This document shows, in pieces, positions 28,290 through 64,000 of a stretch of DNA of 64,000 nucleotides. Every line of letters starts with the position of its first letter. Positions within the stretch are counted from its first letter, which is position 1. The notes under the pieces were generated by a model, which had not been told where the DNA came from, ran no database searches, and saw only the letters and a list, made by a program, of their open reading frames with translations. Origin of the DNA: Octopus vulgaris (taxonomy: Eukaryota); assembly GCA_951406725.2 (NCBI GenBank), contig OX597817.1, positions 58,466,001-58,530,000 of the forward strand, written 5' to 3'. Made by a program: the position numbers and the translations under genes.

Positions 28290-28291
<2 letters not shown>

Positions 28292-30845: not shown

Positions 30846-31221
30846 GTAAGTCACGACAATCTTTTGGTACACACGTATAAAAGCTGTTTATACACCCATA
30901 TTAATACACGCACACATACACACACATACATGCACGCATGCACGTGCACTGGTTTCGAATTGTGCCACAAGGCCAGCAATTTTGAGAGAGGAGTTCACAT
31001 CAACCCCAATGTTCAGCAATGTACTAATTCTATAGACCCCAAAAGGATGAAGAGCAAAGTCGATCTTGGCGAAATATTAACCCAGAACGTACAGAGCCGG
31101 AAAAATGCCGTTAAGCATGTTATCCGGCACGGTGATAATTCTGTCTCCTCGCTGCTTTACATACATACACACAACAACTACGAAGACAACAACAATAATA
31201 ATAATAATAATAATAATAATG

Positions 31222-31437
31222 ATGATCCTTTCTACTTTAGGCACAAGGCCTGACATTTTGGGGGAGGGGATGAGTCAATTACGTCGACCCCAGTACTCAA
31301 CCGGTACGTAATTTATCGACCCCGAAGAATGAAAGCAAAGTCGACCTCGGCGGAATTTGAACTCAGAACATAAAGACAGATAAAATGCCGCTAAGCATTT
31401 TTCCCGGCGTGCAAACGATTCTGCCAGCTCGCTGCCT
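31222..31437 (-). mobile_element. SINE family A monomer with tail 2 and (ATT)n
   Basis: Head, core, then ccttgtgcctaaagtagaaagg followed by (ATT)n. Confidence 0.85.
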
Positions 31438-32856: not shown

Positions 32857-34154
32857 CGAGAGGGGAACCCAAAAGAAACCGGAATTTTGCAATGTTGTTT
32901 TATTCACTTAGTTTTATATGATTATATTTTTATCGCCTTCAAAGTGTTCTCCATTTGAAGCAATGCATCGGCCCAGTGTTTGAAGCAGTCCTGGAGCTTT
33001 TACGAAGTGATGCCTTTTAACGCCTCCGTCGTTTTCTTTTTCTTCACACCTTCCACATCTTCAAAATGTTGCCCTTTAAAGACTTTTTTCATTCGGGGAA
33101 ACAAAAAAAAAATGTCACAGGGAACAAGATCGTGTGAATAGGGAGGGTGGGTTAACGGGGCCAATTTTGGTCAAAATCTATCAAACTCAAGGCAGTGTGC
33201 GAAGGTGTATTGTCATGATGAAACCACTCTTTATTTTTGTCACAGGTCGAGGTGTTTATGTCTCGCAAATGCTTCGCAACTGCCAAGTAAAATGTCTGGT
33301 TAACAGTTTGACCAGAAGGAACAAATCCTGTGCGGACATTTCCTTTCGTATCGACGAAAGAAACCAGCATCGTTTTGATATTGGACTTCACTTGATGCAC
33401 TTTTTTTGAGGCGTGGTGATATTTAATGCTTCCATTGTCTTGATTGCTGCCCCATTTCCTGGTCGTAGCCGTAGCACCAGCTTTCGTCACCAGAGATGAC
33501 CTTCGAAAAAAGCTCCGGACCAACTTCTAACTGTTCTTTCAGTTCATGACACTCATTCAATTGTGACTGCTTTTGATCTTCCGTGAGCAAGCGGGGCGCA
33601 AATTTTGCTGCAACTCTTCATTCGCAATTCCTCACCCAAAATTCATTGGCAGGAACTCCAGGACACATCAGTCATATCAACAAGTTCGTCAATTGTTAGG
33701 TGATGGCCTCCCCAAGATCAGTTCATGAATTATCATGATGTTTTCATTCATTCAGAAGGTCCACGGTCACCCTGAACAAGGTTGGTCTTCAAGCAACAAG
33801 TCACCCTTCCTAAAGCGTGAAAACCACTCATAAACTTGTGTTTTGCTCATGGCAGCGTTCCTATAAGCTGTCTGAAATATTACAACTGTTTGGTGCATTG
33901 TTTTCCCCAGCAGAAAACAGAATTTCTCGGAAGCAAGCAGTTCCTTCGTTTCAGCCATCGCAAAAATCGACGAATACTGGGAATAGCACTGCAAAACAAA
34001 GATGCATTACGTAGCAGTACGACTCCACCTGACGACGCCAGTCCGCAAACTGATGCCTGAGGGTCACATCAAGAAACTACTAGTGGCGGAAGCCAGAACT
34101 ATCATGGGCTTGTCCCACAGAGAACATTTCCGGTTACTTCTGGGTACCTCCTCG
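32857..34154 (-). mobile_element. Full-length, defective mariner transposon (~1.3 kb) in Rab intron 3
   Basis: TA TSDs at 32855-56 and 34155-56; ~28-bp imperfect TIRs; frameshifted transposase KFCFLLGK..VYEWFSRF, KSNIKTML..F, HHDNTPSHT. Confidence 0.92.
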
Positions 34155-39214: not shown

Positions 39215-40040
39215 TCCAGTTTTATAAACCTCTCTGGTATAAACTGGTCAACTATAATAAAAAAGAGAGGACTGAAAATCGAGTCTTGATGGACACCTAC
39301 CTACAATCTTCCTAAATTCCTTGCTGAACTCATTACTAAATCTCACCATGCCGACAAGATCTTGGTAGATGGTTTGCATGGCGCCCACATTAGTTTCCTT
39401 AGCTGCCATCAGACTACAGAGCACGGTATCTTGATAGACCGGAAGCTTACCGTTGCCCCCAAACAACTTCTCTTGTAGTTGTTTCACTATGAACAGGGCA
39501 GACGCAATATCCCGTTCTAATTTAAACCAAAAATGCATCTCATCCACGCCAATACTTTTCCTAATCGGTTGTGTCATAACAATTCTTTCGGTTACTATCA
39601 TAACTTTGATGCTTCTGTAGACATTTCTTTCCAGACTATCTTACTCGCCCTTGAAATTAATAGGCCAGTCATTAGCTATTAAACCTCATTGAAAAATCTA
39701 TTTAACCATACGAGTAACATCTCGTCCTTCGCCGGATATTTTCGGCATCTCACTGACTATTCCTGACGGTCCAGCAGCTATCTCACCGTCTCCATATCAT
39801 TAATTGCACACTCGAATGGCTGTCAATTTTAATAGCTAACCCGTCTGTTGGGTCTACGTGGGGTAATCCATCTGTCGGCCCCGTACATCCTTATAATCTA
39901 CTAGCCAATCCTGGAAATATGCCCTCTTCCTCTTGTTGCCAGTGATGCCAAATGCACCGTTTTCATCCCGTATAACGCCTCGATTCTCTGTGTTCCATTG
40001 TCTTGCAATCATAAACACTTCACGCCTCTTTCTGCGCGCT
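39215..40040 (-). mobile_element. Degraded RTE LINE RT fragment
   Basis: AAGPSGIVSEM, ALFIVKQLQEK and neighbouring RT motifs with stops and frameshifts. Confidence 0.7.
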
Positions 40041-43595: not shown

Positions 43596-43901
43596 TCATT
43601 GTTCAAGGGGGAATATTTTGTTGCTGGTTTTGTTTAACGGCGAAGTTTTTCTGATCTGTGGTACATTTAATTGTAGAGACGGTGCAGTGATGGAATTATG
43701 TTCTAGAGGTATAGCTAGTTGGGAATCTTTGTGTAAAGGGGAATTTTTCAAAGGAATTTCTTCTTTTCTTTCCACTTGATTTTCTTTGGTATCTTTCACG
43801 GGTGTTTTACAATCTTCTGTTACAACAGGACTGACGTTTCCTTCTTCTGTCTTTTCAGCTGATTTCGTTCTCGAAATCAGCCAGTAACATGTATTTGATG
43901 A
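43596..43901 (-). CDS. PstS-domain receptor guanylyl cyclase-like gene, last exon
   Basis: tttcag|SSNTCYWL (matches the cyclase C-terminal TYWL), then a low-complexity tail to TGA; phase 0 matches the donor at 56718. Confidence 0.8.
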   Translation of the reverse strand, partial: SSNTCYWLISRTKSAEKTEEGNVSPVVTEDCKTPVKDTKENQVERKEEIPLKNSPLHKDSQLAIPLEHNSITAPSLQLNVPQIRKTSPLNKTSNKIFPLEQ

Positions 43902-44040
43902 CTGAAAATATATAAATTGGTTAATTAATTTATTAGTAAAATGAAAACAAGGAATCTTTTAACAATTGTCTATATTTCAATACAACTTTGCTGCAATAAC
44001 TTTTAAGGTACAGTTCTTTATTTAAGAGATGAGGAATTGT

Positions 44041-44173
44041 GTACATTATTTACATTTGATGGATATTTGCCCTCATCTTGTTTGTTGTTAACACAATGTT
44101 TCTGCTGATATACCCTCCAGCACTCATCAGGTGTCTTGGGGAAATTTCAAACTGGCTTCTCATTCCTAAGGTA

Positions 44174-44235
<62 letters not shown>

Positions 44236-44555
44236 TATTCAGGTCACTGCCTGGAATCGAACTTGGAATCTTGGGGTTAGTAGCCCGCGCTCTTAACCAC
44301 TACGCCATATGCCCATGGGCATATGGCGAGTTCGATTCCAGGCAGTGACCTGAATAATAATAATAATAATAATAATGATGATGATGATAACAACAACAAC
44401 AACAACAGCAACATTGAAAAATACCTTAGGAATGAGGACCCAGGTTCGAAATTTCCCCAAGACATTTGATGATGGCTGGAGGATATATCAGCCGAAACGT
44501 GTTAACAACAAACAAGATGAGGACAAATATCCGTCAAATGTGAATAATGTAAATA
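44041..44555. mobile_element. Head-to-head palindromic element: tRNA-like head, (TAA)n, hammerhead motif
   Basis: On -: A-box TGGCGTAGTGG, B-box GTTCGATTCC, (TAA)n, gacac-CTGATGA..GAAA..gtgtt (44090-44135). Inverted copy on +; central hairpin cgccatatgccc-at-gggcatatggcg. Confidence 0.72.
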
Positions 44556-45567
44556 ATGAACTTTTAAGGTGTTTATTCGTTGCCTGTCCTACACAGGACA
44601 CCCCACTTTAGATTCTCTATCACTTATCGATGAAACGAGACAGACCGAGTCATTTGGGAAACTTCATAACTTAATCTTGCACCCTGTACGTAAGTACCAT
44701 AATCAACTCTCAATCAAAATAAAGCACGTCAGCATACAAGCATTTAAAAGAATTCCAACAACATAAAATACTTTCATTTAATAGAAAAATACAAATTGTT
44801 CCCCTCACAATTGTGCCACCAGGCTAAAAGCTCCCAACGTCACGTTGAACTTTTCCAAACACCTCCTTTTCAATACATACAATACATCCCGACAGTAAGA
44901 CAACACAGGTAACACAAGAGCATCGCAGGTAAGATTTGTATACTACTTAAGCAATCCCATCGGTACAGCCACATGTCTTACGCAGCTAGCTAGAACAACT
45001 GTACCGCAGATACCCCTTTCTACCTCACACATCCATCCGCCATTGAACCCTCCTTTGACGGATACCACTTTCTGCTTCACACATCCAGCCACCCTTGAAC
45101 CCTCCTTTGATAATCTACCCATCGTGACCGTAATATACTTACACATCAACGAAGAAAGCAAAAATATTGGTTTCAAATTATTCTAGGAGAGTGAAAAATG
45201 GTTATGTGTGAAAAGAATATCCATGATTTATCTTACGATCAATATTCTACGAACAAGATATCTACGTATGGTTCCATTTCCCTTTGACTAAAGTTTTCCC
45301 ATAAAATACTGAAGATCCATTATCCTGAATATTCTTCCAGTGCTTTATCATTTCCGATTACCCGCTCACCGTCCCACCATCGCCATGTCTTCTGAGATAT
45401 TTCTGACTTTATGGTACTTCACGGAGAGGCAGAGTTGACTCCCAGGTGTACTTTGAACGCAGAACGTAAGGAGCCGCAAAAAATGTAGCAAAGCACTTTG
45501 TCGGATATACTAACGATTCAGCCAGCTCACATTATATGTGTGTGTGTGCCCGCGTGCATCTATCTAG

Positions 45568-46787
<1,220 letters not shown>

Positions 46788-46788
46788 T

Positions 46789-46859
<71 letters not shown>

Positions 46860-47861
46860 CTTATCTATGCGTGTGTGCATCTGCCTGTGTGTGTATGTAC
46901 GTGGGTGTGCATATACTATACAGCAACAACAGCAACAACAACGAATGGTTTTGAGGAAACTCGGCCGATTAATTTCTTATTCACGATATTCAATTAGTAA
47001 CATTTCTGCTACAAGCAATCGATGTGGACGGATTAAATGTATTTATTAATCGTGAATTCATCAAACGTAATCGATGGGAAGGTTTTGAAACGATGGAGAT
47101 ATTAAAGCTGGACCTACATACCGTGGTCGCCAGTGTGACGGCCTGGATTAAGTAGTTACTGCGATCTAACAGCTACGAGTTCTATTCAACCGTACAGCAC
47201 TATACTATAATCTCGAGTTGACCAAGACCTTCAGAGGGAAATTTGTTAAATGGTAGCTGTATCGAAGCCTATATATATATAATCTTATATTCTTTTTCCT
47301 GTTTCAGTCATTTGACTTCAGCCATACTGGAGCACCGCCTTCAGTCGAACAAATCGACCCCAGGATTTATTCTTTGTAAGCTTCGTACTTATATCGGACT
47401 CTTTTGCCGAACTGCTAGTTTACGGGGACGTAAACACACTAACATCGGTTGTCATGCGATAGTGCGGAAACAAACATAGACACACAAATACATACATATG
47501 GTCACTAACAGGGTAGAAAGACTACTACTAACAAGGGGACAGCCTGAAAGACTAAAAAGAACAGTCACGCATAACACTGAGAAGAGAATATATAGGGAAC
47601 GAAACCAACAGGAAAAACGCAAACGCATGTTAGAACATTCCGAGATACAATAAATATTTGTTTCAACACACGATTTCCCATCAGGAGTCTTACAACACAG
47701 AAGATTCATGAACGTAACGACATAAGCCTCAGCCAGGCTAGCAAGACGCTGGAAAACAACACTATAGTCTGCGTAAGAAGATCATTACAACACAACAACT
47801 TCATTTCGTAAAACTGTGTGTCGCCTGCAGAACTTATTCCAAGACGGTCACCAACAAGGTG

Positions 47862-47906
<45 letters not shown>

Positions 47907-47962
47907 ACCGTTGGCGATTTTTTTCCTCCGTCTTCCCTTCTCTGGATCTTTCCTTTTCCTAT

Positions 47963-47996
47963 GTTTCTGACGAAGACCTCCGCTCGAAGCGTAAAA
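47963..47996 (+). ncRNA. Degenerate minimal hammerhead motif
   Basis: gttt-CTGACGA-a ga(c)c tcc gctc-GAAG-cg-TA-aaac. Confidence 0.5.
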
Positions 47997-48081
47997 CCCT
48001 CCATCTTCCCTTCCTTCCTGAGCGTCCAATAATACTATATTTTTTCCACATCCTCGCGTTGTTGTGTTTTCATGTTTGGAT

Positions 48082-48157
<76 letters not shown>

Positions 48158-48242
48158 TAGATAGATAGATAGACAGATATAGATATAAAGAAGACAAAAA
48201 AAAATGGAACAAGGACAGGTCATTCGGAGCTTCCTATCCCCC

Positions 48243-48335
<93 letters not shown>

Positions 48336-48835
48336 TGTATAAATAACAAGGTGAGAGAGTCTTTTGCGTTTCGAGCCTACGCTCTTCAACAGAAAGGAAC
48401 ACGAGGAAATAAACAGAGAGAGGATAAAAAACTTTTGGAGTTAGCAGTCAAAGGCTTCTTTCAGTTTCCGTCTACCAAATCCACTCACAAAGCTTTGGTT
48501 GGCCTGGGGCTGTAGTAGAAAACACCTGTCCACGTAGTGGATCTGTACCCGGAACCATGTGGTTGGAAAGCAAGCTTCTTACCATACAGCCACTCCTGCG
48601 CCGATATAACTCATACATACATACGTAAATATTAGCTTCAAATTTTGGCACAATGCCAGCAATTTCGGTGCAAAGTCTAAGTCGATTACGTCGACCCTCA
48701 ACGCTTGAGTGGTTCTTGTTTAACAACCCCGGAAGGTAACGATGGCAAAGTCGTCATCGGCAGAATTTCATTTCAGGACGCAAAGATGGAAGAAATGCAA
48801 CTATGCATGTCGTCCGGCTTGCTAATGATTTTGCC

Positions 48836-48899
<64 letters not shown>

Positions 48900-48920
48900 G
48901 ACACACATATGTATATGTTA

Positions 48921-49009
<89 letters not shown>

Positions 49010-50510
49010 TATGAACACACATACGGATACGTGTATGTATTTGTAGGCTTGTATTTCTTTATTTAACTGTAGGAGGAAAAACCAGTGCATTCAAACAGAA
49101 ATCTGCTCTGCATATCAGTCCAACACTGGACGAATGGGAAGGTGGTGGGACCGGTGTTTTAGACTGAATTCTTTGAAGCTGGTGTCCGAGAATGATGGCA
49201 ATTGAATCACTGAAACTAGGCCAAACAGAATAAAATAAAATAAAATAAAAAAACAATGGATCGTTTCTATGAGCCAATAACAAAGTCTATACATTGGTTA
49301 GAAACAGCAGCTAATCTCCTTCAACTTTGACGTAAAACTCATTTATATTATTTGCTTGTTTTTTTAATATACTATTAATGTTTTTTTTAAACTTTATTTT
49401 GAATTATCCAATACAATCGAATAATAAATATTACAGCAACGATACGTTACCAACACGATAAAATATGATACCAATAGTCGAACAACAAAGGAAGTATTAC
49501 AAAATATAATTAAATATAGTACAACAACAGTGAGATATATATAGCCAGATTAATAATCTCTATAAAAAATATATTAATTAATATTATAATCAATAACATT
49601 TATACGAGAAAAACTTAAAGTCGGAGGTGGGTAGGGGATACAGTAGAAAGAGCAGTAATAGAATATATTAAGTTTAAAAAAAAAACGATTGATAGCGGCA
49701 AAAAATGAAGACCTTGACTTCACTGGTGAAAACAACGATTAAAGCGCTCATCAAAGAAACTAGTAAGTGTGGAATAGTAACATGACCTAGATTTTTCCCT
49801 TGACCAGTAGGGTCAAAAAGTCAATTTTTTACTATTTTTAAAACAACATCCAACACAGTTAAATAAGAGAACTAAAAGCTTACCATTTAGCCGGAATAAA
49901 TTCTCCATTCGAGAGAAGCATAAAAATAGCTGCCAATATACCCAGAAGAGGCCATTGCTTTATGTATAACTTCATAATGTAAAAGTGCACATATGAACAA
50001 TAACAATTGGCCGAAACGTAACGTAGGCGAAAAAATGTATGAACTTATAAACTGACTGCACTATGATTAAAAAAAACGATATTTCTATGTGTATTACTTG
50101 TTTTCTATAAACTATTAATTATTTCTCCTATATCAGAAAGAATGAAGTCTCTATAGAGACAACTGGACTTTCGGATGCGAAAAGTACTAAAGTGGTAAAA
50201 CAAACCAACCAAAAACATTAGTACATAAACGAGCAAATAATATATAGAATCATCGAAGGATAACAGCGCAAAACTGGTGCCCGCTTAGTTAACATGTCCC
50301 TACAAAAGAAAACTTCTTTCCGTAGAAAAAGTTTTTTTAATAAACGCCTATATATATATATATATATATAAGTTCAGCAAAATTTAGATTCAGTTAAAGG
50401 CACCAGAATTTTGTATGGTATTATCCATATAAATCAAATGGGGGTGATTATAATCAAAATAAGCAACAAGGATATCCAAGGTAGTGTAGTACAATTGTTT
50501 CATGCTACTT

Positions 50511-50546
<36 letters not shown>

Positions 50547-51304
50547 CGGGAAGCTTTATGAAAACAGACAAAAGACGAAGGCAGGTGGGAAACAAACAAA
50601 CAATTGTATTAGTATGGCGCTCAGGAAATATAAATAAAACAAGTCTTTAACGTTTCGAGCCTACGCTCTTCAACAGAAAGATACACAGAGAGAAAAAAAA
50701 CACAGAAAGAAGGAGAGAAAAAAAATGCGTGCAGTAGTGTGTGTGTGCATATATCTATATATATATGTATGTATGCATGTATATGTATGCCACTTCTATT
50801 TTCTAATTATTATAAATCTTCCACTGAGGAGGGAGCCGGTTTCCAAGAAAGATACAAGGCTCCATCTTTGGGATGTTAGCTACATCCCAAAGAAATTCAT
50901 ATTTGAAACTTGAGAAAAGTCTTGCATATTTTTACTGTTCCACACACAGATTACACTTCTAATGTACGAATCAGCCGGTCGATTTCTCTCTCTGAAAATC
51001 CCAGTTAATCCAGATTCTCCTTTAAGCATTTACTAACAAAATCTAGTTCTCCAATTATTATTGGTATGAATATGAATTCTTAGACTGGATATAGAAGCTG
51101 GAGGTTTGGACGCGGTTGTCCATAGATATGTTCTTTTTCTTTGATTTTCAAAGAGATATTTATATCTGCAGGCCAGCTGATCTCTATGATGGCAAATACC
51201 TTTGCCCCCCCCCCCTGTTCCAAACTACAATATCCGGCATATATACATACATACATACATACATACATACATACATACATACATACATACATACATGCAT
51301 ACAT

Positions 51305-51374
<70 letters not shown>

Positions 51375-51478
51375 TGTATTTACATTTGACAATTTTGCTG
51401 GGAATATTCCACCAGTATTCCTTGAGTTGGTATTTATGAATGGATTCCATAAGAGAGGGATTATCTTAGTTTATTTCG

Positions 51479-51751
51479 TACGCATCCTCGCATTTTCTTC
51501 CTTCTTTCCTGCCCGCCCGTCGCCGCCGCCGCTGCCCTTGTCACCTCCAGTCCGTGGCCGCCGCTGTCCTTGCTACCTCACTTCCGTGGTCGCCGCCGCC
51601 GTCGGTCAGCGTTCGCTCCGTGGATCTCGTTGCGAGCGTTCGTGCCGGCCGACGGAGCTGCGACACCAGCAGTTGCCAACTCACGAATATAACACACACA
51701 CATACGCTGCCCTCGACTCGGACGAGACTACCCGCCGAACTTAAGCATATC
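51479..51751 (+). pseudogene. Dispersed rDNA fragment: probable ITS2 3' part plus 28S rRNA 5' end
   Basis: GC-rich island ending cctcgactcggacgagactACCCGCCGAACTTAAGCATATC, the universally conserved LSU 5' sequence (LR0R site with 1 mismatch, start of the ITS4 site). Confidence 0.82.
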
Positions 51752-51925
51752 GCTTGACAACCGATGTTAGTGTGTTTACGTCCCCCGTAACATAGCGGTT
51801 CGGAAAAAGAAACAGATAGAATAAGTACTAGGCTTACAAAGAATAAGTCCTGCGCTCGATTTGTTTGAGTGAAGGCGGTACTCCAGCATAGCAAGTAAAA
51901 GAACAAAATAATAAAAGAATAAAAG
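51749..51925 (+). mobile_element. SINE family B 3' half fused to the rDNA fragment
   Basis: atcgcttgacaaccgatg..ggcggtactccagcat..gtaaaagaa. Confidence 0.85.
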
Positions 51926-52109
51926 AATGCTCTCAATAAGCTTTCTTCTGAGATTATTCTATGAATCCGTCTTTTGTTTGGATGACAGCTTCAACATAGA
52001 GGCGGATTCATTGACATGCCTGCACTAAATGGTCCTGATTAATTTCGGACATCTCCTGGACAATGGTAGCATTCACTGAAACTATGGTATTATGAAGATA
52101 TCGATTAAT

Positions 52110-52780
52110 TTCTTTTTCCCGTAATGTTCTATGATCGTAAATATTGCTTGACGTCCATTAATGGATTACATGAGCGTGTTGAAAAGGTACTGGTTCTTCT
52201 TAAAGTACGTATGGGCTTCCACCGCGTACTTCATCCATCCAGGCCTTAGTAACTGTTTCCAACACCTCACTTTATCCCGCACCAAAATTACTCATCACTC
52301 CTAAAACCATTACAGCTGCTGCAAATTTAATGATGGTTATGTGCAGGAAAATCTGCGCAAACTATCTGGTCTTGGTTGGATTTTCTCTCATCAGGATAGA
52401 ACCAATACATGCCATGTTTGTGTGAGTTTTTAACCTTATTAAGTAACCGCATGACACGGATTAAAGAGTTTTCTTGTGTCTTTTCAAACATGAATCAGCT
52501 TTTCCTCCCTACACACGACTTGTAACGAATATTCTCGAGCACCACATGTTCTTCTCATTCTTCCTGACATCTGAAGCTTTTTGTGATGGACTGCATCAAT
52601 ATTCCGCTGTCATCAACAATAATGTTTCGAACCCATCCTATGAATTACAACAGTGTCCTTACAATGTGCGAATACTTAGAATCTCTTTGTCTCTCCTCTT
52701 TTAATATAGCAAAATTGTGTTTTAAGCATTGTTTTTATGAACGTCTATTTTATAAAAAAGACATATTTTAGACACCACGA
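52110..52780 (-). mobile_element. Degraded Tc1/maT (DD37D-like) transposase
   Basis: KFAAAVMVLGVMSN..EVLETVTKAWMDEVRGGSPYV, with stops. Confidence 0.65.
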
Positions 52781-53526
52781 TGTTAACATCACAAACAGTA
52801 TTTCATCGTTATTTCAAAACATCATTTGTTATTGAATATAACAATCAATTGGGCTGAAAATCGTTGACATAAATATCGAGAAAGAAAGGGATTAATTACT
52901 ATTGCAACAAGTAATTGAGATGATGACTTGTCCGACAACATTGGTTCCCCACCCTTCACAAATGTTTATGGCTCCAAGAATAAACGGTATTCCGCCGCTC
53001 TATATCGATCATCGGGGAAAAGAAATAGTGATTCATTTGTTTTATTATTGCAATATGTCAACAATAAAGCCGTTGGCTGCAGGTTTCTAATGAAGCAGTC
53101 ATTGGTTCATATTTCAGATACGGCGAGAGTGGTAAGGGAGTATTTGTAAGTCGGTGCAAAACAAATATCACAAGAGGCTTCATTTAAAGAGAATCGATTT
53201 TTGTTTTTCTAGCGGAAATATATACATTCGTATGAATTTATTTATGACTGCTCAAAAGATGATTAAGACCTCTTTAAAAAACAAAAAACAAAAAAAAAAA
53301 GCTCATTCTTTTTTCAGAAAGTCGTTCCCGAACACTAGCACCAGTCAACAAAAGAAAAAAAATCTAAAACATATACGCTTTCCATATGCACATACGCACA
53401 CAAACAGATAAATGTATCTGAGTGTGTGTGAGCGCGCTTGCGTAGTGTGAATGTATGTATATATATATATATACATATATAAGTAAATAAATGGAGTTGA
53501 ACGAAGATGTTATTAAAATTCTTTTA

Positions 53527-53609
53527 CTTTCGACATATGTTTCGAAGACAACATTGGTTTTATTCCAAAGGAATAAACGGTGTAAAATGCAATTTTCTCA
53601 TCAGGAAAG
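53527..53609 (-). ncRNA. Type I hammerhead ribozyme (4682 family)
   Basis: ctttc-CTGATGA-gaa..ttc-GAAA-catatg-TC-gaaag; palindromic stem III ACATATGT, GUC triplet. Confidence 0.72.
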
Positions 53610-53951
53610 AAAGAGAGCCTATCTCAACAACAAGACATTATAACAATTACAATGACTGCCTAAATGATAAACAGAACGTTATTAAGTATTTAAAAAAACC
53701 GTTAGTAGATTTGACATCAAAGGCAGATAGTAGGAAGAGAAGGGTTAAAGGAATAATAAGTAGAGAACAAATAGAGAGGGATACGTTGGTTGACAAAATG
53801 TACAAAGGCTTAGAAATAAATTTCTCTATTGAAGTAAAGTGCAAGTTAAACTAACTGTTCAAACTATAAAGACTGGCAAAATCACTTATATGAGCTAAAG
53901 GTATGTTTCTGCCAGTGTGTATATTTGTAAAATCGCTCTATGAGCGTGTGT

Positions 53952-54149
53952 ACAAGGTAATTCTTATAGAAGAGAATATGGAAGAGTTCAGAGTTGCAAA
54001 TGTTACAAAATCTCTAGCCCTTATCGTAAGGAAAATATATGGACAGGATGAATCAATCTAACTTAAAATCTTTATTGTTGTCTTTAAGATGCCAAACCAA
54101 TTTGCAACTCTGAACTCTTCCATATTCTCTTCTCTAAGAATCACCTTGT
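53952..54149. repeat. 50-bp inverted repeat
   Basis: 53952-54001 and 54100-54149 are nearly perfect reverse complements. Confidence 0.85.
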
Positions 54150-54254
54150 GAAAGACAATCGCGCCATATCAGTGTGCAGGATAGTAGACAAGGAAACCAT
54201 TGAAAACTAAGGAGCCAAGAAATCTCAAACAAGTTTAAACATTCATTCATACAT

Positions 54255-54640
54255 TCTCAGAGCTCTGCATTCAATAAAACTGTGGCCCACAATATGTTTT
54301 CAATGCCAGTACTCATACCAACATTGAGGCTGCTTGATTGAACGCTTGATGAGATCCGAGCCATTGATGTGAAAACCCGGAAAATACTAAGAAGCAAACA
54401 TAATTTCCACATAAACAGTGACGTAAACCGCCTCTACCTAAAACGAAAAGAAGGCGGCTGAGGCTTAACATCAATCCAAAATGTCTTTGAATGTCGCATC
54501 ATATTTCTTCGGCAACATCTTTTAACCACCAAGTGTCGAAGTGCATCCCTTGACCAAGTTTGCATACATGAGGCTGATAACATCATAAGACTTAGAAGGC
54601 TGCTCCTTGAGCAACACTCTTTGTCTGATAACCTAGAATA
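54255..54640 (+). mobile_element. R4/Dong-like LINE RT fragment
   Basis: SAFNKTVAHN..PVL..IDVKTRKIL..HINSDVNRLYLKRKEGG*GL, with in-frame stops. Confidence 0.72.
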
Positions 54641-55134
54641 CATGCGCAAAAAACGTCGCACGGCTCTACAGCAACGTATCATCAGATGAAAGGCAAGTGT
54701 CTTCTACTATATCCTCGGGCCGACCAAAGCCTTATGAGTGAATTTGGTAGACGGAAACTGAAAGAAGCCCGTCTCCCCCACATCCCAACACCATCACATC
54801 ACACCACACACCACCACACCGTCGCAATGCCGGAAACCCTTCCGTATCATGAGGAGATATGACAAGGTCACACATTCCTACAAACGCTGACATATCACTG
54901 CAGCCGTCTGGTTGAGGGGCTTTCTTATAAACATATAATCCGAAATGCTACGTATATATATATATATATACACACATACAAACACACGCATGCATGCATG
55001 CATACACACATACATACACGTACACGCATATACATAGATACATATATAGTACAAAAATTGCCGATAAATAAATGTATACATACATGCATTTAAAATACAT
55101 ACGTACATGTATGTGTGTGTGTGTGCGTAGACGT

Positions 55135-55165
<31 letters not shown>

Positions 55166-55226
55166 TTTATTTATTTTTTTATTTTATCTAGTTTCAGCTC
55201 ACGAGCTGTGGCCATGCTGGGGCACC

Positions 55227-55266
<40 letters not shown>

Positions 55267-55329
55267 GTATGTATGTGTGTATGTATGTATGTATGTATGT
55301 ATGTATGTACATATGTATATCTATATCTA

Positions 55330-55383
<54 letters not shown>

Positions 55384-55392
55384 ATCTATCTA

Positions 55393-55453
<61 letters not shown>

Positions 55454-55552
55454 GAGAAAGAAGCAACAAGAATGGATTAGTTTTTAGTACAATTGTTTCA
55501 TACAAAGACAGGCTTTATTACAAGTTGCAAAAATTGCAGCATATATATATAT

Positions 55553-55583
<31 letters not shown>

Positions 55584-55584
55584 C

Positions 55585-55760
55585 TTTATTATGAATGCTG
55601 CAAAAATATCTCAAAAATATCACAAAAGAACTGCTACTCAGAGTTTCGCGTTACCGTTCGTCAGGGTGTTGTGATTCGACGAACGGGAACGTGAAACTCT
55701 GAGTAGCAGTTTTTTGTGATATCTTCAGGATGTTTTTGCAACTTAATAAAAAAGCATATT
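55585..55760. mobile_element. Fold-back element with two opposed hammerhead cores
   Basis: Arms 55599-55664 / 55676-55740; CTGACGA..GAAA-ctctgag-TA on -, TCGACGA copy on +. Confidence 0.7.
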
Positions 55761-55795
55761 ACTCTACCTCCGCAACATTTATGTGCTTATTCCGG

Positions 55796-55881
<86 letters not shown>

Positions 55882-55889
55882 AGATAGAA

Positions 55890-56553
55890 AAAATAACAAA
55901 CGTATTCTGGTAAGTCCGAAATTCGAGTACCAAGTTATCTATTCTAGGTTGTCCTTTTATCCGGCGTTCTTTCTAGAAGTAAGACGAAATTTTTTTTTAT
56001 ATTTGCCACCCGCACACATCTTTGCCTCTATACATTCAATGTAGCTTTACCATAGCGTCGTATGGTTATCGACTGCTATTTCTAGCAAACACTGGTGCCT
56101 TGTTGTTCCACTATTTCCTATTTATAATTCTACCTTTACGGTGCTTTATTTAGCTGGAAAATAATACTATTGTATAGCAATAATATTTATACTTTTTATA
56201 TAAAACTTTTTCACTGATCTCGGTTCTGTTTATGTCTGGGCGTATCTGTCGAATATACAGGCACTGATGTAACGGATATTTTAAATTTCGTCTTCGGTGA
56301 ATCTAGCTGAAGAGGACTAATAAGGTTTGCCATAACAAACGTACTCTGGAAGGTCCGAAACTCGATCCTTAGTTTATCTATTCTAGGTTGTCCATTTATC
56401 CGGTGTTCTTCCTGGCGGTAAGACGAAAAATATTTTGTTCGCCGCCCGCACACATCTTTGCCTCTCTACATTCAGTAAAGCTTTACATAGGGTTGTATGG
56501 TTATCGACTGCTATTTCCAGCAAACATTGGTGCCTTATTGTGCCACTATTTCC
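55890..56553 (+). mobile_element. Tandem direct ~225-bp repeats (pLTR-like) with a hammerhead motif at 56303-56372
   Basis: 55895-56121 aligns with 56333-56553; CTGAAGA-ggac..gtcc-GAAA-ctcga; the other copy keeps ttcgagTA. Confidence 0.65.
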
Positions 56554-56649
56554 TATATGTGTGTGTGTGTGTGTGTGCATGTGAGTATATATATATATGT
56601 GTGTGTGTGTATGCATGCATGTATGTATACATGTATGTATGTGTGTATG

Positions 56650-56686
<37 letters not shown>

Positions 56687-56718
56687 ATACATGTATATAT
56701 ATATATAGTTGAACTTAC

Positions 56719-59296
56719 GGTTACATCTTCATCGATATGGAAAGTTTTATCAGTGGCAAGAATGTCTTGGACTTGTTTAGAAATCCGAATTTTGGAAGGT
56801 TTACTCGAATTTAACAAGTCTTTCGTTTCAAGTAGACCGGTTCCGAAGACATAAACAGCTTTCGGAGACTCTGCTACACCAATATGTAGATTGCCTATAT
56901 GGATCGCAACACGGATCTTCAAGTCTTGTAGGTGAGGGTCACTGTTTTGAAAAATCCCTAACCAGTCTAATGCTAAGTGAGCTATTGTAACCACGCGGGT
57001 AGTTTTGTCGCTTTCATTTTCCATTCCAGTCAGGTAAATCCATGTGCAGGTTTCCGATGCTATTTGACAGACGTTCGTCTTGGAAGTCTTGTCTTCAATT
57101 AGAAAATGAATTCTCTTTAAAACAGCAGCAACGTCATCCATTTGTCTTTTAGCAAGGAATTGTTTAAACTCATGCAGTTCTACTCCCAGAAAACAGTTAT
57201 CGAGATGATTGTTCACCAGAAACGGTTGATCCGATATGAGATTTGGTAAGATGAACTTTGGTACGTAGCGACTGAGCTGTTGCTCCATTCTTTCTTTTGC
57301 TAAATTCAACTCATTTGTTCTTTCTTCGATTCGCATTTCTAAATGTTCCGTATATTCTTCCATAGCTTCCATCATGCTGTCTAAGACACTTTTACGAAAT
57401 GGATTTGCATGTTTAAGCATTTTAAGAATTTGGTCGAAAGTCGGCCGACTATTGGCCATTGAAGACCAAGCTATCTCCATAATCTGGCGGACTTGTACGG
57501 GTGTATCTTCGTTTGTTTGAGGACGAAGATTATTAAAAATAATTGCATTGAAGATTTCATCTATGCTCATAGTATCTGCCAACTCAATGTATGGCTCATC
57601 TCGGCTAAATATCTCTTGAAGAATAATGGCGAAACTATACACATCGCTTGTAGTTGTTGGAAATTTCAAAAAGTTTGAGGATAATATTTCTGGTGCCACC
57701 CAGAAATCGCTGACTATAAAATCCTTGTCTTCTGGAACGCCATTAATTTGTCTTTTCCATGACAGCGGATTCTTCAGCGGATTCATGATGGAATACAGGC
57801 GACAGTATTCCCAATCGGCTATTTTCACTGTCCATCGGCTGTCTATCAGACAACAAGATGAGTGTAGGTTTCCGTGAATTAAACCCATTGCATGTAAGTA
57901 ACTCATGCCACTCACAATATCGACAGATAAAGAAAATTTAAAATCTGTGGTTAGATTGTATTTTCCATCTTGAAGAATTTCGGTAAGAACTCCTTTCGAA
58001 CAATATTCATTAACGGCAAACCTGTCGTTATAATCGATTTCGGTTAAGCCATAAAACCGAAGAACGTTCGAATGTAAAATATGTTCCCGCATCCATATCA
58101 ATTCCCGTTTCGTTTTCTGATCTATGTGAGCAAAGTCTGGCACATTTAGAAGTCTGATTCCAATTTGCTGACCTTTCCATCGACCAGGCCATTGTAAAAT
58201 CTGGGACAGAATCATTTCACCGTCGGGAATATCATTGATTGATTTGAACGATCTTATAGATTTAAAAAACGTCATCTTTGACTTCTTCGTGTAACCTTTG
58301 TCTTCGAAATAAAACAAAATGTTCTCGATAGCAATATTCCATTCATTATTGTTGATCATTTTTCTGAGCTTCAGCTTTTGGTAAATAATGTAACCGAATA
58401 AAGCTAACAATAGCAGACAGAATAAAGGAATAAGAACCGCCACTGGCGTCTTCCATTTCTCTTCCACGTAATTCTCTCTCTTTTTATCTTCTGCCACCAT
58501 ATCCCACAACGAGACTCCATTGCATTGCATATGCAATAATATTTCTCTTTTAATTTTCGCTTTCAGTTCATTCGTTATTGGTACCATATTTTCTCTGGTA
58601 CAAATTGTTCTGGCATAGTCATCAGTTGTAAACCATTGGATAAAGCGAAGAAGCTCTTTAGCAATTTCACATCTTTCAGTGTATTTCAGACGAATAACCA
58701 TATATGTAAATCCTAGAATTGGATAGATTCCTTCAGCTGGAATATCAACAAGTGTTTCTGTGAACGAACGCCCCATTGAACTCTGAAAATACGTGTCTAA
58801 AGCCTTTTGTATCGAAGCTTCATCATCGGGGGAAATAAAATGGCCAGCGCTATTCTCTATTCTTGCAAGCGGCAGGTCGAACTTTTTCGCTTCGTTGACA
58901 ACGACATACCCAATTGAATACTCGAAAGACGCTATTATTCCTGCCATTCCGGAATTTTTCTTCCCGTAATAGTTCACAGCTCGTGGATTCCATTTCACTG
59001 GTGTGTTACCGCCGTCTACAGTTCCGGCAGAAAAGGCGCCATATTGTTGTTTCCAGTTTGCATCAAAGGCACTCAGAGCTGTCGTGAACATATTTGTAGT
59101 TCCTGATTTACTTTGGCGAGCCAGGACGAGTATTTCGGCATCGGGCATTATTACACCGGGGTTGGTTTGTAGGAATGTGCTGTCGTTCCAATGGGTAAAT
59201 GTTCCATTATAAATGCCGACAAGTTGTTCTCTGGACAGATTCAATGGGAAACCGTATGATTTCACTTCCGGTATATTGTATGCAATGGAAATGGCC
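56719..59296 (-). CDS. PstS-like ectodomain / TM / kinase-homology / coiled-coil / degenerate guanylyl-cyclase receptor, 2578-nt internal exon
   Basis: Acceptor ttgcag| at 59297, donor |gtaagt at 56718. PstS motifs YNIP..L.LS...L.GIY.G...WND....NP, RxxxSGTT, IGYV, YPI..FTY; TM 58381-58443; HGNL.SS.CL.DSRW.VKIAD; LD.M...ME.Y..HLE..IEERT; IR.AIH.G..FG. Confidence 0.9.
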
Positions 59297-59615
59297 CTGC
59301 AATAATAAATGTAATAGAATACGTTAAACAAACATTACCAATACTCTGTAACACACATATATATACATCAAACAAAACTGTTGAAATATTGTTTCAAATT
59401 TCGGCTCAAAGCCAGCAATTTCGGGGAAAGAATAAGTCAGTGTTTGACTGGTACTTATTTTATCGACCCTCGAAAGAATGAAACGCAAATTTGACCTCGG
59501 CTGAATTTGAACTCTGAACGTGAAGTCAGACGAAATGTCACTCAGCGTTTTTTCGCCAGCGTGTTAACGATTCTGCCAGCTTGTCGCCTGAGCAAAGCAT
59601 TTGACATATTTAATA

Positions 59616-59791
59616 TTCTCTTATTTGTTTTCAGTCATTTTGACTGCGGCCATGCTGGAGCACCACCTTTAGTCGAACAAATCGAACCCAGGACTTATTC
59701 TTTGTAAGCCTAATACTTATTCTATCGGTCTCCTTTGCCGAACCTCATCGGTTGTCAAGTGATGTTGGGAGGACAAACACGGACACACAAA

Positions 59792-59836
<45 letters not shown>

Positions 59837-59991
59837 CGGGCTTCTTTCAGTTTCCGTCTACTATATTCACTCAGAAGGCTTTGGTCGATCCTATAGTAGG
59901 AGACACTTGCCCAATGTGCCATGCAGTGGGACTGAACCCAGAACCATGTGGTTGGGAAGCAAGCTCCTTACCACACAGCCACTCCTGCCCC
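59616..59991 (-). mobile_element. SINE family B, full length
   Basis: Head, internal (GT)n and CR1-type tail; similar copies at 25730-26105(-) and 63165-63587(-). Confidence 0.88.
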
Positions 59992-60689
59992 TAAGATGAC
60001 ATTATTATATCAATTTTATTAATAACATTATTTCATTGTATGAAGCGGCGAGTTGGCAGAATCGTTAGGATGCCGGGCAAAATGCTTCGCTGCATTTCAT
60101 CCGTCTTTATGTTCTGAGTTCAAATTCCGCCGAGATCAACTTTGCCTTTCATATTTTTGGAGTCGATAAAATAACGAGAATTGGGGTCAACGTAATAGAC
60201 TTACTCCTCCCCCGGTATTGCCTTGTCACACTCTGTCTCGCTGAATATCCCCGTTAAGGACATGCGTGTTTGCGGAGCACTCAGCCACTTGCACGTTAAT
60301 TTCACGAGCAGGCTGTTCCGTTGATCGGATCAACTGGGACCTTCATCGTCGCAACCGACGGAGTGCTACGAATTAATTAATACAGAGGCCTTGTACCGAA
60401 ATTTGAGGCCAGTATTATTCTATTGTATTACTTTTCCATAATTACTGGTATCAAAACTGACAGTTTTTAAAAAATGAATTGTAGAGAAGGAATAATAACA
60501 AACAAATGCAATGAATGCCGACCGGAGTTCGACCTGATTTGATTGGGAAGAAATTTCGACTCTGGTTTCTTTAGTCTGTCTACAGTCAATCAATTTCTGT
60601 GAGATGTTAACATCTCATGTTATAAAGGCGGTGCTCCAGCATGGCCACAGTCAAATGACTGAAACAAATAAAAGAGTAAAAGAGTAGAT

Positions 60690-61088
60690 CTAACCAATTA
60701 ATTTATGGCACTCCGTCGTTTGCGACGACGTAGGTCGCAGTTGATCCGATCAATGGAGCAGCCTGCTCGTGAAATTAACCTGCAAGTGGCTGAGCACTCC
60801 ACAGACACGTGTACCTTTAACGTAGTTCTCGGGGAGATTCAGCGTGACACAGAGTGTGACAAGGCTGGCTCCCTTTGAAATACAGGTACAACAGAAACAG
60901 GAAGAAAGAGTGAGAGAAAGTTGTGGTGAAAGAGTACGGCAGGGTTCGCCACCAACCCCTGCCGGAGCCTCGTGGAGCATTAGGTGTTTTTGCTCAATAA
61001 ACACTCACAACGCCCGTTTTGGGAATCGAAACCGCGATCCCACAACCGCGATTCCGTTGCCCTAACCATTGGGCCATTGCACCCCCAC
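60690..61088 (-). mobile_element. tRNA-derived SINE family C
   Basis: A-box tggcccaatggttagg, B-box ggtttcgattccc; 3' part repeated at 60218-60370(+). Confidence 0.8.
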
Positions 61089-61091
61089 AAC

Positions 61092-61168
<77 letters not shown>

Positions 61169-61179
61169 ATGTATGTATG

Positions 61180-61241
<62 letters not shown>

Positions 61242-61607
61242 CACACACACATAATGATTTGTTAATCAAGCTCTGACCGCAATAAAAAATCTCTCTGTCT
61301 GTCTGTCTCTGTCTGCCTACCTGCCCCCGCCTCCCCCTTGTCTCTCTCTCAAGGTATGTTTGTGTATGTGTATATAGCTGTGTATGTGTGTATAGCTGTG
61401 TGCGTGTGTTATTGACTGACATACATATCATGTGGTGTGTGCTGGCGTCTGCCCACAAGTATAGTTATTAATGTGCACGTCTGTATCTCTTTGCATTGAT
61501 TTAAACCTATGAATGAGTGCGTCTATTTGTCTGTGCGTCTAACTATTAAAACCTCTCCATACTGCAAAAACCCAAATGTAAATCTCCCAGCTTAAAACTA
61601 TTTTATC

Positions 61608-61712
61608 CCACCTGAAGAGTCTTCAATGCATTGTGCGTTGCATGTTGCGTTATTACATCGTTCGTCGCCCACAAGGGAACAGTGCATCTTGAAGATGAAA
61701 CAATTGTGGTGG
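61608..61712 (+). ncRNA. Hammerhead motif with G at the cleavage position (likely inactive)
   Basis: ccac-CTGAAGA-gtcttcaa..ttgaagat-GAAA-caattg-TG-gtgg; palindromic ACAATTGT. Confidence 0.65.
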
Positions 61713-61884
61713 TAATAATCTTTTTTTGTGTTGGTATATTCCGTCTTCTCTATTTATCCTTTAGAGAGACTTAGTAATTTTAATATTTCTATTAATGAAA
61801 ACAAGTGGATGTATTCCACTGTAACTAGGTAAATAAAATCTTCGAACAGACGGTCAGTAGCGACACCTGCTGGGTCTGACTACG

Positions 61885-61925
61885 CTGCATTGATAAAGGG
61901 TAGCAACCCTGAAACATGTCTGCAG
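61885..61925 (+). ncRNA. Minimal hammerhead with U3:A8 core
   Basis: ctgca-TTGATAA-agggt(agca)accct-GAAA-catg-TC-tgcag. Confidence 0.72.
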
Positions 61926-62122
61926 ATGTCTGACTAGCAAGGTGAAGCGGCTGACCTCCCCTGTTCGAAGGTTGTAATGGACGCAGGTTCGTGTGTCATA
62001 TAGCTAGCTAGAGGCGATGGCCTCTTGGAGCTAATCAACGACAGCTTTAGTCTTATATTTATAGACTGCCATATTAATATGGCGATAACTATTAATATAT
62101 ATATATATATATACATATATAT

Positions 62123-62175
<53 letters not shown>

Positions 62176-63706
62176 TATATATACATACATACATACATAC
62201 ATACATACATACATACATACACACATACATTATGACTGCCCCCTCGTTATCGAGTATGGCCATTACACGAAGCTTAACTGTTACTGGTGCTGTGATCGAA
62301 TGTGACTTTTTAGCCCAGCTAAAGATCTACAATGTCTTGTACATACATACATACATACATACATACATACATACATACATACATACATACATACGTACGT
62401 ACATAAACCAGGCGGAGGATCGAAATTTGTTAGATGGGGGACTATGATCGATATGCTAACGATAGTATCAGAAAATATTTTAAATTATGCAGTTTTATAC
62501 ATCTTTTATTGAACAGATCCCAGTTCAGAATTATCACTAACGATTGTTCAGTTGAGTGTCACATGAGAACACCATGCGACATCATATTTAACCACTTTAC
62601 ACGCCTCACTACGCTGGCTAATGAATCAATCAATAACTTTATACATGAATCGATTCATCCGCCGACATTGCCCTTCCCTGTTGAATTTTAGCTTGAATCT
62701 CGCCACACTAAATCAACTCTACACGTTATTATAAGATTAATTCCTTCTAAAAGATTGTATTTGGCGTAGAAAATAAGGAGAAGTACTTTTGTAAACCTTT
62801 TAGCAGCACATCTTCAGGTGTGGACATGTGGGTTGGTCTCCAGCTACTACACAACTCCCACTTATGGCTTGCAGAAGTCGGTAGTGCACATCATTAGTTA
62901 CCCCACAGTGCCTCAAAATGCTTATTTTAAGGTAAGTATTGAAAAAGTACCCCCAGAGTGGTCACGTAAAATATACAACAGAATTTACTTTCCAACCTTG
63001 CATTTTAATCGTAAATTTTGAACAGCGTTTCTCAAAGGGGGATGTATCGGCTCCTTTGGGACCCTGCAACCCACTTCAAAATGATTTACAATGAAAATGC
63101 TTTCTGATTCCATTTCGATAAAGGTTTCGCACGAAATGTCTGTAGACTTCTTTCCTTTTTCCATTATATCTTTTATTTGTTTCAGTCATTAGGTTGTGGC
63201 CATACAGGGGCACCGCCTTGAAGGGACGAATCGACAGCAGTACTTGTCATCATTATGTTTTTTGTAATGCCTGGTACTTATTCTATCGACCTCTGTTGCC
63301 GAACCGCTAAGTAACTGGGACATAGACACATTTGCACCAAACCGTGGTGGTGGTGGTGGTGGTGGTGGTGGACACCCACACCCACACACACACACTCACA
63401 GATACACACACACATGCGTGCCTACAACGAGCTTCCTTCAGTTTCCGTCTCGCAAATCCACTCACACGGCTTGGGTCGGCCCGAAGCTATCGTAGAAAAA
63501 CACTTGCCCAACGTAGCAAGCTGTGGGACTGAACCCAAAACCACGTGGCCGAGAAGTAAACTTCTTACTACATAGCTACGCCTGCACCAACTTTTGCGTG
63601 AATTATTTTTGCGTTAATTAGTTTTGTGTTAATTAGTTTTGCGTTTTCATTTTGTTCTTTAGTCAGGAGAGAATGAGTTACGGCAATCTGTGCAACAAGC
63701 ATGACC

Positions 63707-63741
<35 letters not shown>

Positions 63742-64000
63742 ACATTTTATCCACCATCTTTTGAAAGATTTGTCTACCTGTTGTAACCTTTCACGCCGTC
63801 CAATTGATTAATCTCTTGTTTCTCTCGCTTCATTTGAGGTGTTTTACCTGGAAGATGTATCGAGGCCACGACTCTAACTCTTCGATATGTCATCAGACAT
63901 AAATAATGCCTCTACACACACATACGACGTCCCGTTTTCCTTTCATTAAAGCAATATTTAGGAACTGAGATTTGCGAATGATCTTTTGCTCAAAGCTCAC

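Follow-up and report, generated by a model that had tools for sequence, protein, structure and literature searches.

A PstS-fold ectodomain on a receptor guanylyl cyclase chassis in Octopus vulgaris: a candidate phosphate or oxyanion receptor with a non-catalytic cyclase domain

The window analysed here is a 64,000-nucleotide stretch of the Octopus vulgaris genome (GCA_951406725.2, contig OX597817.1, positions 58,466,001 to 58,530,000), and its minus strand carries most of a gene whose product joins an ectodomain of the type of PstS, the bacterial phosphate-binding protein, to the chassis of a receptor guanylyl cyclase (rGC); the gene is a candidate phosphate or oxyanion receptor. It sits on a 177-Mb contig. 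An open frame runs from 59334 to 56383 on the minus strand, within which the codons of spliced exon 2 are in frame from 59295, and the first part of the frame is 100% identical to a 1,070-amino acid (aa) O. vulgaris record named "guanylyl cyclase GC-E-like." Mapping of this protein on the genome gives three coding exons separated by GT-AG introns, the first exon lying 1.9 kb beyond the window end. The features of the gene are as follows.

G000:C4:58532253-58531925 (equivalent to window 66253-65925): exon 1, from protein mapping; ATG, signal peptide and the N-terminal part of PstS with S40, F41, S72 and E91 (aa 1-110)
59297..64000, minus strand: 3' part of intron 1 (6.6 kb in total, GT-AG, phase 2)
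56719..59296, minus strand: exon 2 (aa 110-969), flanked by AG and GT; most of the PstS domain, transmembrane (TM) helix, pseudokinase, signalling helix and pseudo-cyclase
58501..59296, minus strand: exon 2 part of the PstS-fold ectodomain, aa 111-375 (Pfam, NCBIfam, PDB alignment, AlphaFold2, structure search)
59095..59118, minus strand: C-lobe phosphate loop R170-T177 (E. coli R135, D137 changed to S, S139, G140, T141)
58921..58971, minus strand: predicted homodimer surface, aa 219-235 (dimer model and alignment)
58522..58671, minus strand: Cys319 to Cys368, a probable disulfide (from the alignment)
58384..58440, minus strand: single TM helix, aa 396-414, within the modelled long helix 373-425
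57406..58203, minus strand: kinase-homology (pseudokinase) domain, aa 475-740 (Pfam, motifs, tree)
57274..57387, minus strand: signalling helix or coiled coil, aa 747-784 (PDB alignment, full model)
56719..57213, minus strand: class III cyclase fold that lacks the catalytic residues (pseudo-cyclase), aa 805-969
43902..56718, minus strand: intron 2 (GT-AG, phase 0), at a position near the end of the cyclase fold that recurs in the family
43596..43901, minus strand: exon 3, aa 970-1070 and TGA; final cyclase strand, then a tail modelled at low confidence that is probably disordered

Splicing was followed in four sequencing runs compared over 10 kb spanning exons 1 and 2; no run is recorded as RNA, and RNA status rests on the spliced joins themselves. 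A 2,085-base contig of run X1 joins exon 1 to exon 2 and continues through the TM helix and kinase domain, and a 1,208-base contig of run X2, from another study, contains the same join; no piece of run X10 crosses it. Both contigs skip intron 1, which is repeat-rich by read depth and into which the DNA-like run X17 reads. Contigs of X1 and X2 also stop fitting exactly at the exon 2 donor (56719), where X17 continues; this is as expected if exon 2 is spliced to exon 3, and it is the sole transcript support for that junction. Low-depth X10 contigs extend over some 300 bases upstream of the ATG (L030:9554-9869), a likely 5' untranslated region. The boundary of intron 1 coincides with the start of the match in 52 of the 98 family sequences that lack the N-terminal part, and many genomic calls of family members read through at the position of intron 2; because both intron positions recur across family sequences, the exon layout is taken to be old.

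The initial annotation of this DNA had proposed a real, spliced nuclear gene and had called for its 5' exons to be found. The gene is indeed spliced, with exon 1 supplying a hydrophobic N-terminal stretch (a signal peptide judged by hydropathy only) together with the N-lobe contacts S40, F41, S72 and E91, and with the X1 contig linking the PstS part to the TM and kinase part in one spliced sequence. Bacterial contamination, misassembly or a pseudogene could be suspected from the unusually large 2.6-kb exon and the decayed cyclase, but the chance of such an artefact is negligible given the 177-Mb contig with GT-AG introns, spliced contigs from two studies, orthologs in the argonaut and other phyla, recurrent intron positions, and an excess of synonymous differences in exon 2 among the runs (11 of the 14 listed against 21-27% expected, p < 1e-4; the stretch holds two further differences).

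On exon 2, Pfam finds PBP_like_2 (E 1.2e-17; 65 bits against a gathering cut-off of 27), a kinase-like domain (PK_Tyr_Ser-Thr, E 1.1e-32) and a cyclase (Guanylate_cyc, E 4.7e-10), in that order. ANF_receptor (PF01094) has no match on exon 2 at E<=0.1 and is absent from the domains precomputed for the full-length protein. The first part of the frame matches PstS best in both NCBIfam and PDB; with the NCBIfam PstS model TIGR00975 (E 7.5e-44), exons 2 and 1 scored apart give 150-153 and 30 bits, the equivalog cut-off being 205. An AlphaFold2 model of aa 30-390, built on a 67-row alignment, has a predicted local distance difference test score (pLDDT) of 95.8, and PstS structures rank first when it is searched with Foldseek (template-modelling score 0.82 by query and 0.92 by target; root-mean-square deviation, rmsd, 2.0). 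In a wide structure search (VIA), PstS reaches Z 40.2 (rmsd 1.9, 317 residues aligned) and a sulfate-binding protein Z 15.7 (rmsd 3.5, 235 aligned), with the sulfate-, molybdate- and tungstate-binding folds all scoring far below PstS. The two-lobed class II fold and a PBP_like_2 score above the gathering threshold mark the domain as PstS-like. It had been noted from the outset that PstS motif pairs align along the domain, and that it is a class II PstS rather than an ANF ectodomain; the pairs recur in HMMER alignments to solved PstS, and the Pfam result and the model, which superposes best on PstS, agree on the class. In the ESM Atlas, the top feature match (0.92) is a cluster with kinase and PBP_like_2 domains and 79 members, the commonest assignment being Discosea, with the phylum known for one member.

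The phosphate contacts of E. coli PstS are listed in the accessible part of PMC6549937 as T10, F11, S38, D56, R135, S139, G140 and T141. Alignment to solved PstS structures puts S40, F41, S72, E91, R170, S174, G175 and T176 of the octopus protein at these positions and S172 at that of D137. Seven of the eight are unchanged or conservatively replaced; no backbone or hydroxyl contact is lost, nor is the arginine, and the selectivity residue Asp56 is Glu91. The loop had been read correctly in the initial annotation, R135, S139, G140 and T141 being kept and D137 replaced by Ser in R170-T177 (59118-59095), and the expected counterpart of D56 does lie in the 5' exon, as a glutamate rather than an aspartate. 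Across 26 animal domains, which are about 30-40% identical to that of the octopus (S38 and D56 being counted over rows with a residue there), the site positions are far better conserved than the domain overall: R135 in 25/26, G140 in 24/26, S139 in 22/26, T141 (as T or S) in 24/26, D137 in 21/26 and S38 in 18/20, with D in 17 and E in 5 of 22 rows at position 56. Both cephalopod sequences have two site changes, E91 plus either S172 or G. A hydrogen bond of D56 that is short (low-barrier) underlies high affinity and selectivity, and PstS without D56 binds phosphate more weakly, according to the accessible portions of PMC13614923 and PMC5381212; by their PDB titles, the PstS mutants D137N/G/T and D56N have been solved with phosphate. 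The octopus site (D56>E, D137>S) is probably lower in affinity or selectivity than that of E. coli PstS; for the family as a whole, a phosphate-type ligand is likely.

The octopus ectodomain may instead have been retuned to a phosphate ester, a nucleotide, another oxyanion or a protein surface, so that it would no longer sense free phosphate even if its ancestor did. The two site changes in both cephalopod sequences would fit such a shift, as would an ectodomain that diverges faster than the pseudokinase (63% versus 89% identity to the argonaut) and an octopus branch of 0.97, the second longest of the animal rows in a mixture-model ectodomain tree. Retuning is nevertheless unlikely, if still a serious contender: the backbone and hydroxyl contacts and the arginine all remain, a glutamate should still be able to accept a proton, D137 mutants were solved with phosphate, and the folds that bind sulfate, molybdate and tungstate score far lower. 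Altered phosphate loops do occur in a divergent set of family members (P0098, P0106-P0110, P0117-P0119, P0131, P0140, P0149 and P0122) and suggest new ligands for that set; on the tree, three of its members include Trichinella or group with it.

The receptor is probably dimeric. Predicted as a homodimer, the ectodomain gives an interaction prediction score from aligned errors (ipSAE) of 0.45 against 0.00 for the best of three controls, with runs agreeing on at least 88% of contacts and pLDDT of at least 86. Of 30 solved pairs, 20 attain the mark used for a dimer, as does 1 of 23 single chains; among eukaryotes it is attained by 17 of 29 pairs (animals 7 of 16; pairs without an older solved relative 1 of 7) and 0 of 30 single chains. 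Interface residues were checked after the prediction: G229 and S233 occur in 21 and 22 of the 26 animal rows versus 5 and 3 of 18 prokaryote-like rows, and the hydrophobic positions 230 and 232 are conserved in animals and variable in prokaryotes. In the full model, one helix (373-425) runs from the ectodomain stalk through the membrane.

In the kinase-homology domain (KHD) the catalytic Lys is Arg, HRD is HGN and DFG is DWE, motifs by which the domain is a pseudokinase; the kinase-like domains of rGCs are described as pseudokinases in the available part of PMC1435932. The W of DWE is found in 103 of 107 family rows, a set that included one non-animal (Pigoraptor), since removed from the 121-row set. 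The rGC chassis first recognised from the domain arrangement is confirmed by the order of signal peptide, ectodomain, one TM helix, KHD, coiled coil and cyclase fold, by GC-A as the best solved match of the cytoplasmic part, and by a KHD of the rGC lineage, which joins the rGCs in a kinase tree. Octopus and argonaut share 89% identity over the pseudokinase and 82% over the helix, against 63% over the ectodomain and 61% over the cyclase. For six further sequences of the octopus clade in the same alignment, excluding neighbours of the argonaut, identity to the octopus cyclase is 16-22%, and for five of the clade (P0003, P0006, P0008, P0009 and P0010) identity to its pseudokinase is 49-59%; by these comparisons the pseudokinase is the best-conserved part of the protein.

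Where active cyclases have D, E, D, C, N and R, the alignment gives E, A, C, a gap, L and D in the octopus. Because the two metal aspartates, the guanine Glu/Cys and the Asn/Arg pair have all been replaced, the octopus cyclase is considered non-catalytic; judged from these residues, the copy is not a working guanylyl cyclase and cannot itself make cyclic GMP (cGMP). The working enzyme implied by the initial annotation, in which the replacements went unnoticed, does not survive this comparison. The family was gathered as 121 sequences, 61 of them with a complete cyclase; these are cluster representatives, many partial and unnamed, and not a species census. All six residues are kept in 24 of the 61, only the two metal aspartates in 8, only the Asn/Arg pair in 1, and neither set in 28. 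Intact cyclases come from annelid, nemertean, priapulid, tardigrade, Trichinella and unnamed sequences, the named ones being from Owenia, Paralvinella (3), Dimorphilus, Lineus, Priapulus, Trichinella, Hypsibius and Paramacrobiotus. The named mollusc members whose cyclase is complete number 13, none of them intact, and Lineus has both a pseudo-cyclase and an intact paralog. Because both half-sites are missing, the output of the octopus protein would have to be protein interaction or inhibition of a paired cyclase.

A cyclase dead in both half-sites, a pseudokinase and helix conserved above all other parts, and eight family rows in which the metal aspartates alone remain, as in an obligate partner subunit, are also what might be seen in a ligand-independent accessory or inhibitory subunit, pairing with ordinary rGCs through the signalling helix and setting their level or traffic, with PstS mainly a dimerisation module. 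Possible partners are numerous, as other cyclase loci in the octopus genome amount to 57 matches, including a cluster of intact rGCs. However, the phosphate site is equally kept in pseudo-cyclase and intact rows and a purely structural domain would not need it, and a subunit of this kind is considered rather improbable beside a receptor gated by an anion. The other rGCs form a tandem cluster of about 11 genes at C12:28.43-28.61 Mb and one dispersed copy at C18:66.71 Mb (G000; L022-L028), in single open frames of about 1,700 aa that encode a 500-600-aa N-terminal region without a Pfam match, ANF_receptor, EGF repeats, a TM helix, a KHD and a mostly intact cyclase. Some copies have interrupted frames, and the C12 copies share a short C-terminal motif with rGCs of Pigoraptor and Chromosphaera. 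They were considered as paralogs of the PstS receptor and rejected, their ectodomain being ANF plus EGF. The octopus genome contains at least one PstS-domain gene, and only the receptor gene described here was found.

Family members were found in molluscs, worms and tardigrades, in at least six protostome phyla, with orthologs of the octopus gene in the argonaut and in other phyla. In a quick kinase-domain tree of 73 rows (LG+G4), all 34 animal PstS rows fall on one side, with a support of 99 in the Shimodaira-Hasegawa-like approximate likelihood ratio test (SH-aLRT), and join other rGC domains at 100; the true kinases of PstS receptors from Pigoraptor, Fabomonas and giant viruses (six rows) fall apart from the rGC side. 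On this tree of the KHD the animal PstS receptors are one clade. Within it the octopus belongs to a group of 10 rows (99), pseudo-cyclases from chitons, snails, bivalves, cephalopods and nemerteans, which is taken to be an old mollusc-nemertean paralog with a decayed cyclase and a kept pseudokinase and helix. No named cnidarian, sponge, deuterostome or arthropod member was present among the matches, for which 30 representatives were looked up by name and the word-index searches were non-exhaustive.

PstS domains also occur in fungal, amoebozoan and stramenopile class C G protein-coupled receptor (GPCR)-type proteins, in a filasterean receptor kinase, and on kinase-cyclase receptors of an ancyromonad and giant viruses. 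A maximum-likelihood tree without four bacterial rows and one archaeal-like row places all eukaryotic and giant-virus PstS domains on one side versus prokaryotes (100/100). The mixture-model tree, which includes the four bacterial rows and excludes 28 long, redundant or unassigned rows, supports the eukaryotic and viral side with SH-aLRT 98. Prokaryote rows are few (15-18) throughout these comparisons. The sister of the animal domains varies, being Pigoraptor (86/55) in the first tree and Andalucia (83) in the second. The two members of the C319/C368 pair are found in 25/26 and 26/26 animal rows, in 20/30 and 21/30 other eukaryotic, viral or unassigned rows, and in 0/18 and 1/18 prokaryote-like rows. 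The description of the ectodomain as bacterial-type is apt for its fold, but its nearest relatives on these trees are PstS domains of other eukaryotic receptors, which share the cysteine pair.

Unicellular holozoans have the rGC chassis with other ectodomains, and the simplest reading is that two older eukaryotic modules were shuffled together no later than the protostome stem. Direct acquisition of the ectodomain from a bacterium by horizontal transfer into animals draws on an approximately unbiased (AU) test of 46 rows, which does not reject an animal-plus-prokaryote grouping (p 0.174), and on the four animal groups without a named member among the matches. It is a doubtful alternative, given that both trees unite the eukaryotic and giant-virus domains, that the cysteine pair is nearly absent from prokaryote-like rows, and that a filasterean PstS-TM-kinase (Pigoraptor chileana P0130) carries the full phosphate site. 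Elsewhere, the ichthyosporean Chromosphaera perkinsii has a protein (P0034) that combines four PstS domains with ephrin-receptor-like repeats and a multi-pass membrane region. Mucoromycota (Calcarisporiella, Endogone and Jimgerdemannia) have PstS-domain proteins (P0126, P0144, P0152 and P0171), three with a class C GPCR domain on record, which are candidate fungal phosphate receptors.

In bacteria, PstS captures phosphate for a transporter. A tethered protein that captures phosphate, feeding a transporter or buffering phosphate at an epithelium, with vestigial signalling parts, would match this role and the decay of the cyclase. It is very unlikely, since constraint is stronger on the pseudokinase than on the ectodomain, the cyclase was intact in the family ancestor, and the eukaryotic PstS domains found are attached to kinases, cyclases and membrane domains of class C GPCR type.

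Compared with known rGCs (GC-A/NPR1, GC-C and GC-E; PDB 9bcv, 9bcs and 8fx4), the octopus protein has the same order of signal peptide, single TM helix, KHD, signalling helix and cyclase fold, and its kinase domain groups with theirs; however, it has a class II PstS where characterised rGCs have a class I ANF_receptor, as well as the family-specific DWE, a non-catalytic cyclase and three coding exons. With D-type bacterial PstS (E. coli 1ixh, Y. pestis 2z22 and B. pseudomallei 5wnn) it shares the fold of the whole domain, at 27-29% identity, and the kept contacts, but it is fused in frame to TM, kinase-homology and cyclase parts instead of being a free or lipid-anchored ABC transporter subunit, and differs by D56>E, D137>S, the added cysteine pair, glycosylation sequons and the predicted dimer surface.

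PstS-kinase-cyclase receptors exist outside animals, in giant viruses of amoebae and in an ancyromonad. The Moumouvirus (P0115) and Pandoravirus (P0153) forms and the PstS-PstS-kinase-cyclase of Fabomonas (P0146) share with the octopus protein a PstS-like ectodomain, of the same eukaryotic group as the animal domains, one TM helix, a kinase and a cyclase. They have two PstS repeats and kinases outside the rGC domains, with a second kinase in the viral forms, whereas the octopus has one kinase-like domain. Clarke et al. (PMC4053784) report 67 Acanthamoeba receptor kinase-cyclase-kinases, shared with giant viruses, whose ectodomain is unnamed in the accessible part of that paper. Judged from the kinase tree, which included viral rows and no Acanthamoeba sequence, the amoebal and giant-virus kinase-cyclase receptors are a separate assembly. 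Fungal and protist class C GPCRs (SPPG_06488; P0126, P0144, P0169 and P0170) use a related PstS ectodomain as a receptor module but have a seven-TM output, and none was in animals among the matches; the available part of Krishnan et al. (PMC3251606) places PBP_like_2 on one chytrid glutamate-type GPCR, SPPG_06488.

Extracellular phosphate sensing in mammals is attributed to PiT-1/2, FGFR1 and CaSR and is incompletely understood, the known sensors being transporters or receptors for other ligands (PMC12256581, accessible part). The input proposed for the octopus receptor, extracellular phosphate, is the same. None of these sensors is known to have a PstS domain. The initial annotation knew of no characterisation of this architecture in animals, and aimed literature searches, which covered few subscription papers, likewise found no description of an animal PstS-rGC; PstS is not mentioned in the accessible parts of PMC3971589, PMC10463195, PMC1435932, PMC5034306 and bioRxiv 112664. 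Databases hold the domain calls under gene names that are those of ANF-type receptors. The proteins apparently constitute an undescribed family of receptor guanylyl cyclases with a different class of sensor.

The reading preferred here, at a probability of roughly 0.55, is that of a cell-surface receptor, single-pass and probably dimeric, belonging to a protostome-wide family in which a eukaryotic PstS-type Venus-flytrap domain on an rGC chassis serves anion-gated signalling. Ligand gating and the output steps are proposals that build on what was observed of the gene's structure and splicing, the fold, the residues, the range of the family and the trees. An anion, either phosphate or one closely resembling it, would close the two lobes, the paired ectodomains would shift, and the long stalk-TM helix would convey this movement to the pseudokinase and signalling helix. 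In members with an intact cyclase, the result would be a changed output of cGMP. The octopus member would most likely signal through partners at the pseudokinase or helix, or pair with an active cyclase and damp it.

Several points weigh against this reading. The aspartate of the low-barrier bond is Glu and D137 is changed, which makes the octopus copy one of the least typical of the family, and the site is lost in some family rows, such as Trichinella P0122. A PstS of nanomolar affinity would presumably be saturated in body fluids. With a single PstS-domain gene found (a lower bound), there is no intact partner of the same family, and a subunit without both half-sites cannot complete the active site of a partner, which makes the proposed output step tentative.

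A wider proposal, put forward tentatively and at somewhat less than even odds, is that PstS-gated rGCs are a dedicated protostome family of extracellular phosphate receptors that predates the split of Spiralia and Ecdysozoa. Active subunits and partner subunits keeping half or none of the catalytic site would have existed early, and molluscs would have retained none but the non-catalytic type, using it as a pseudokinase receptor gated by phosphate and coupled to a new output; the family would have been overlooked since the main model animals appear to be without it. The family builds a receptor on the phosphate-binding fold that is understood best, and several phyla have natural versions with an intact or a dead cyclase; its mollusc branch is a clear case of a conserved pseudokinase-pseudocyclase receptor. 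If the proposed gating is correct, these would be ligand-gated rGCs answering a simple anion, which would offer a way into how invertebrates forage for phosphate, keep it in homeostasis or form shells, and could be the model for a phosphate-to-cGMP biosensor.

The window has no Rfam match, and its remainder contains a few other features. A 700-aa open frame at 943-3045 (minus strand) has a reverse transcriptase domain and is LINE-like (long interspersed nuclear element). An exon at 3086-3445 (minus strand) resembles ribosomal protein L13a, with no Pfam match at E<=0.001. Retroelement- and transposase-like fragments without Pfam matches lie at 28290-28817 and 33152-33526, and a 130-aa open frame of non-repetitive composition at 39248-39640 (minus strand), also without a Pfam match, may belong to a different gene as one of its exons. 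A small GTPase gene of the Ras/Rab family has exons at 25467-31253 (plus strand), on the opposite strand and downstream of the receptor gene.

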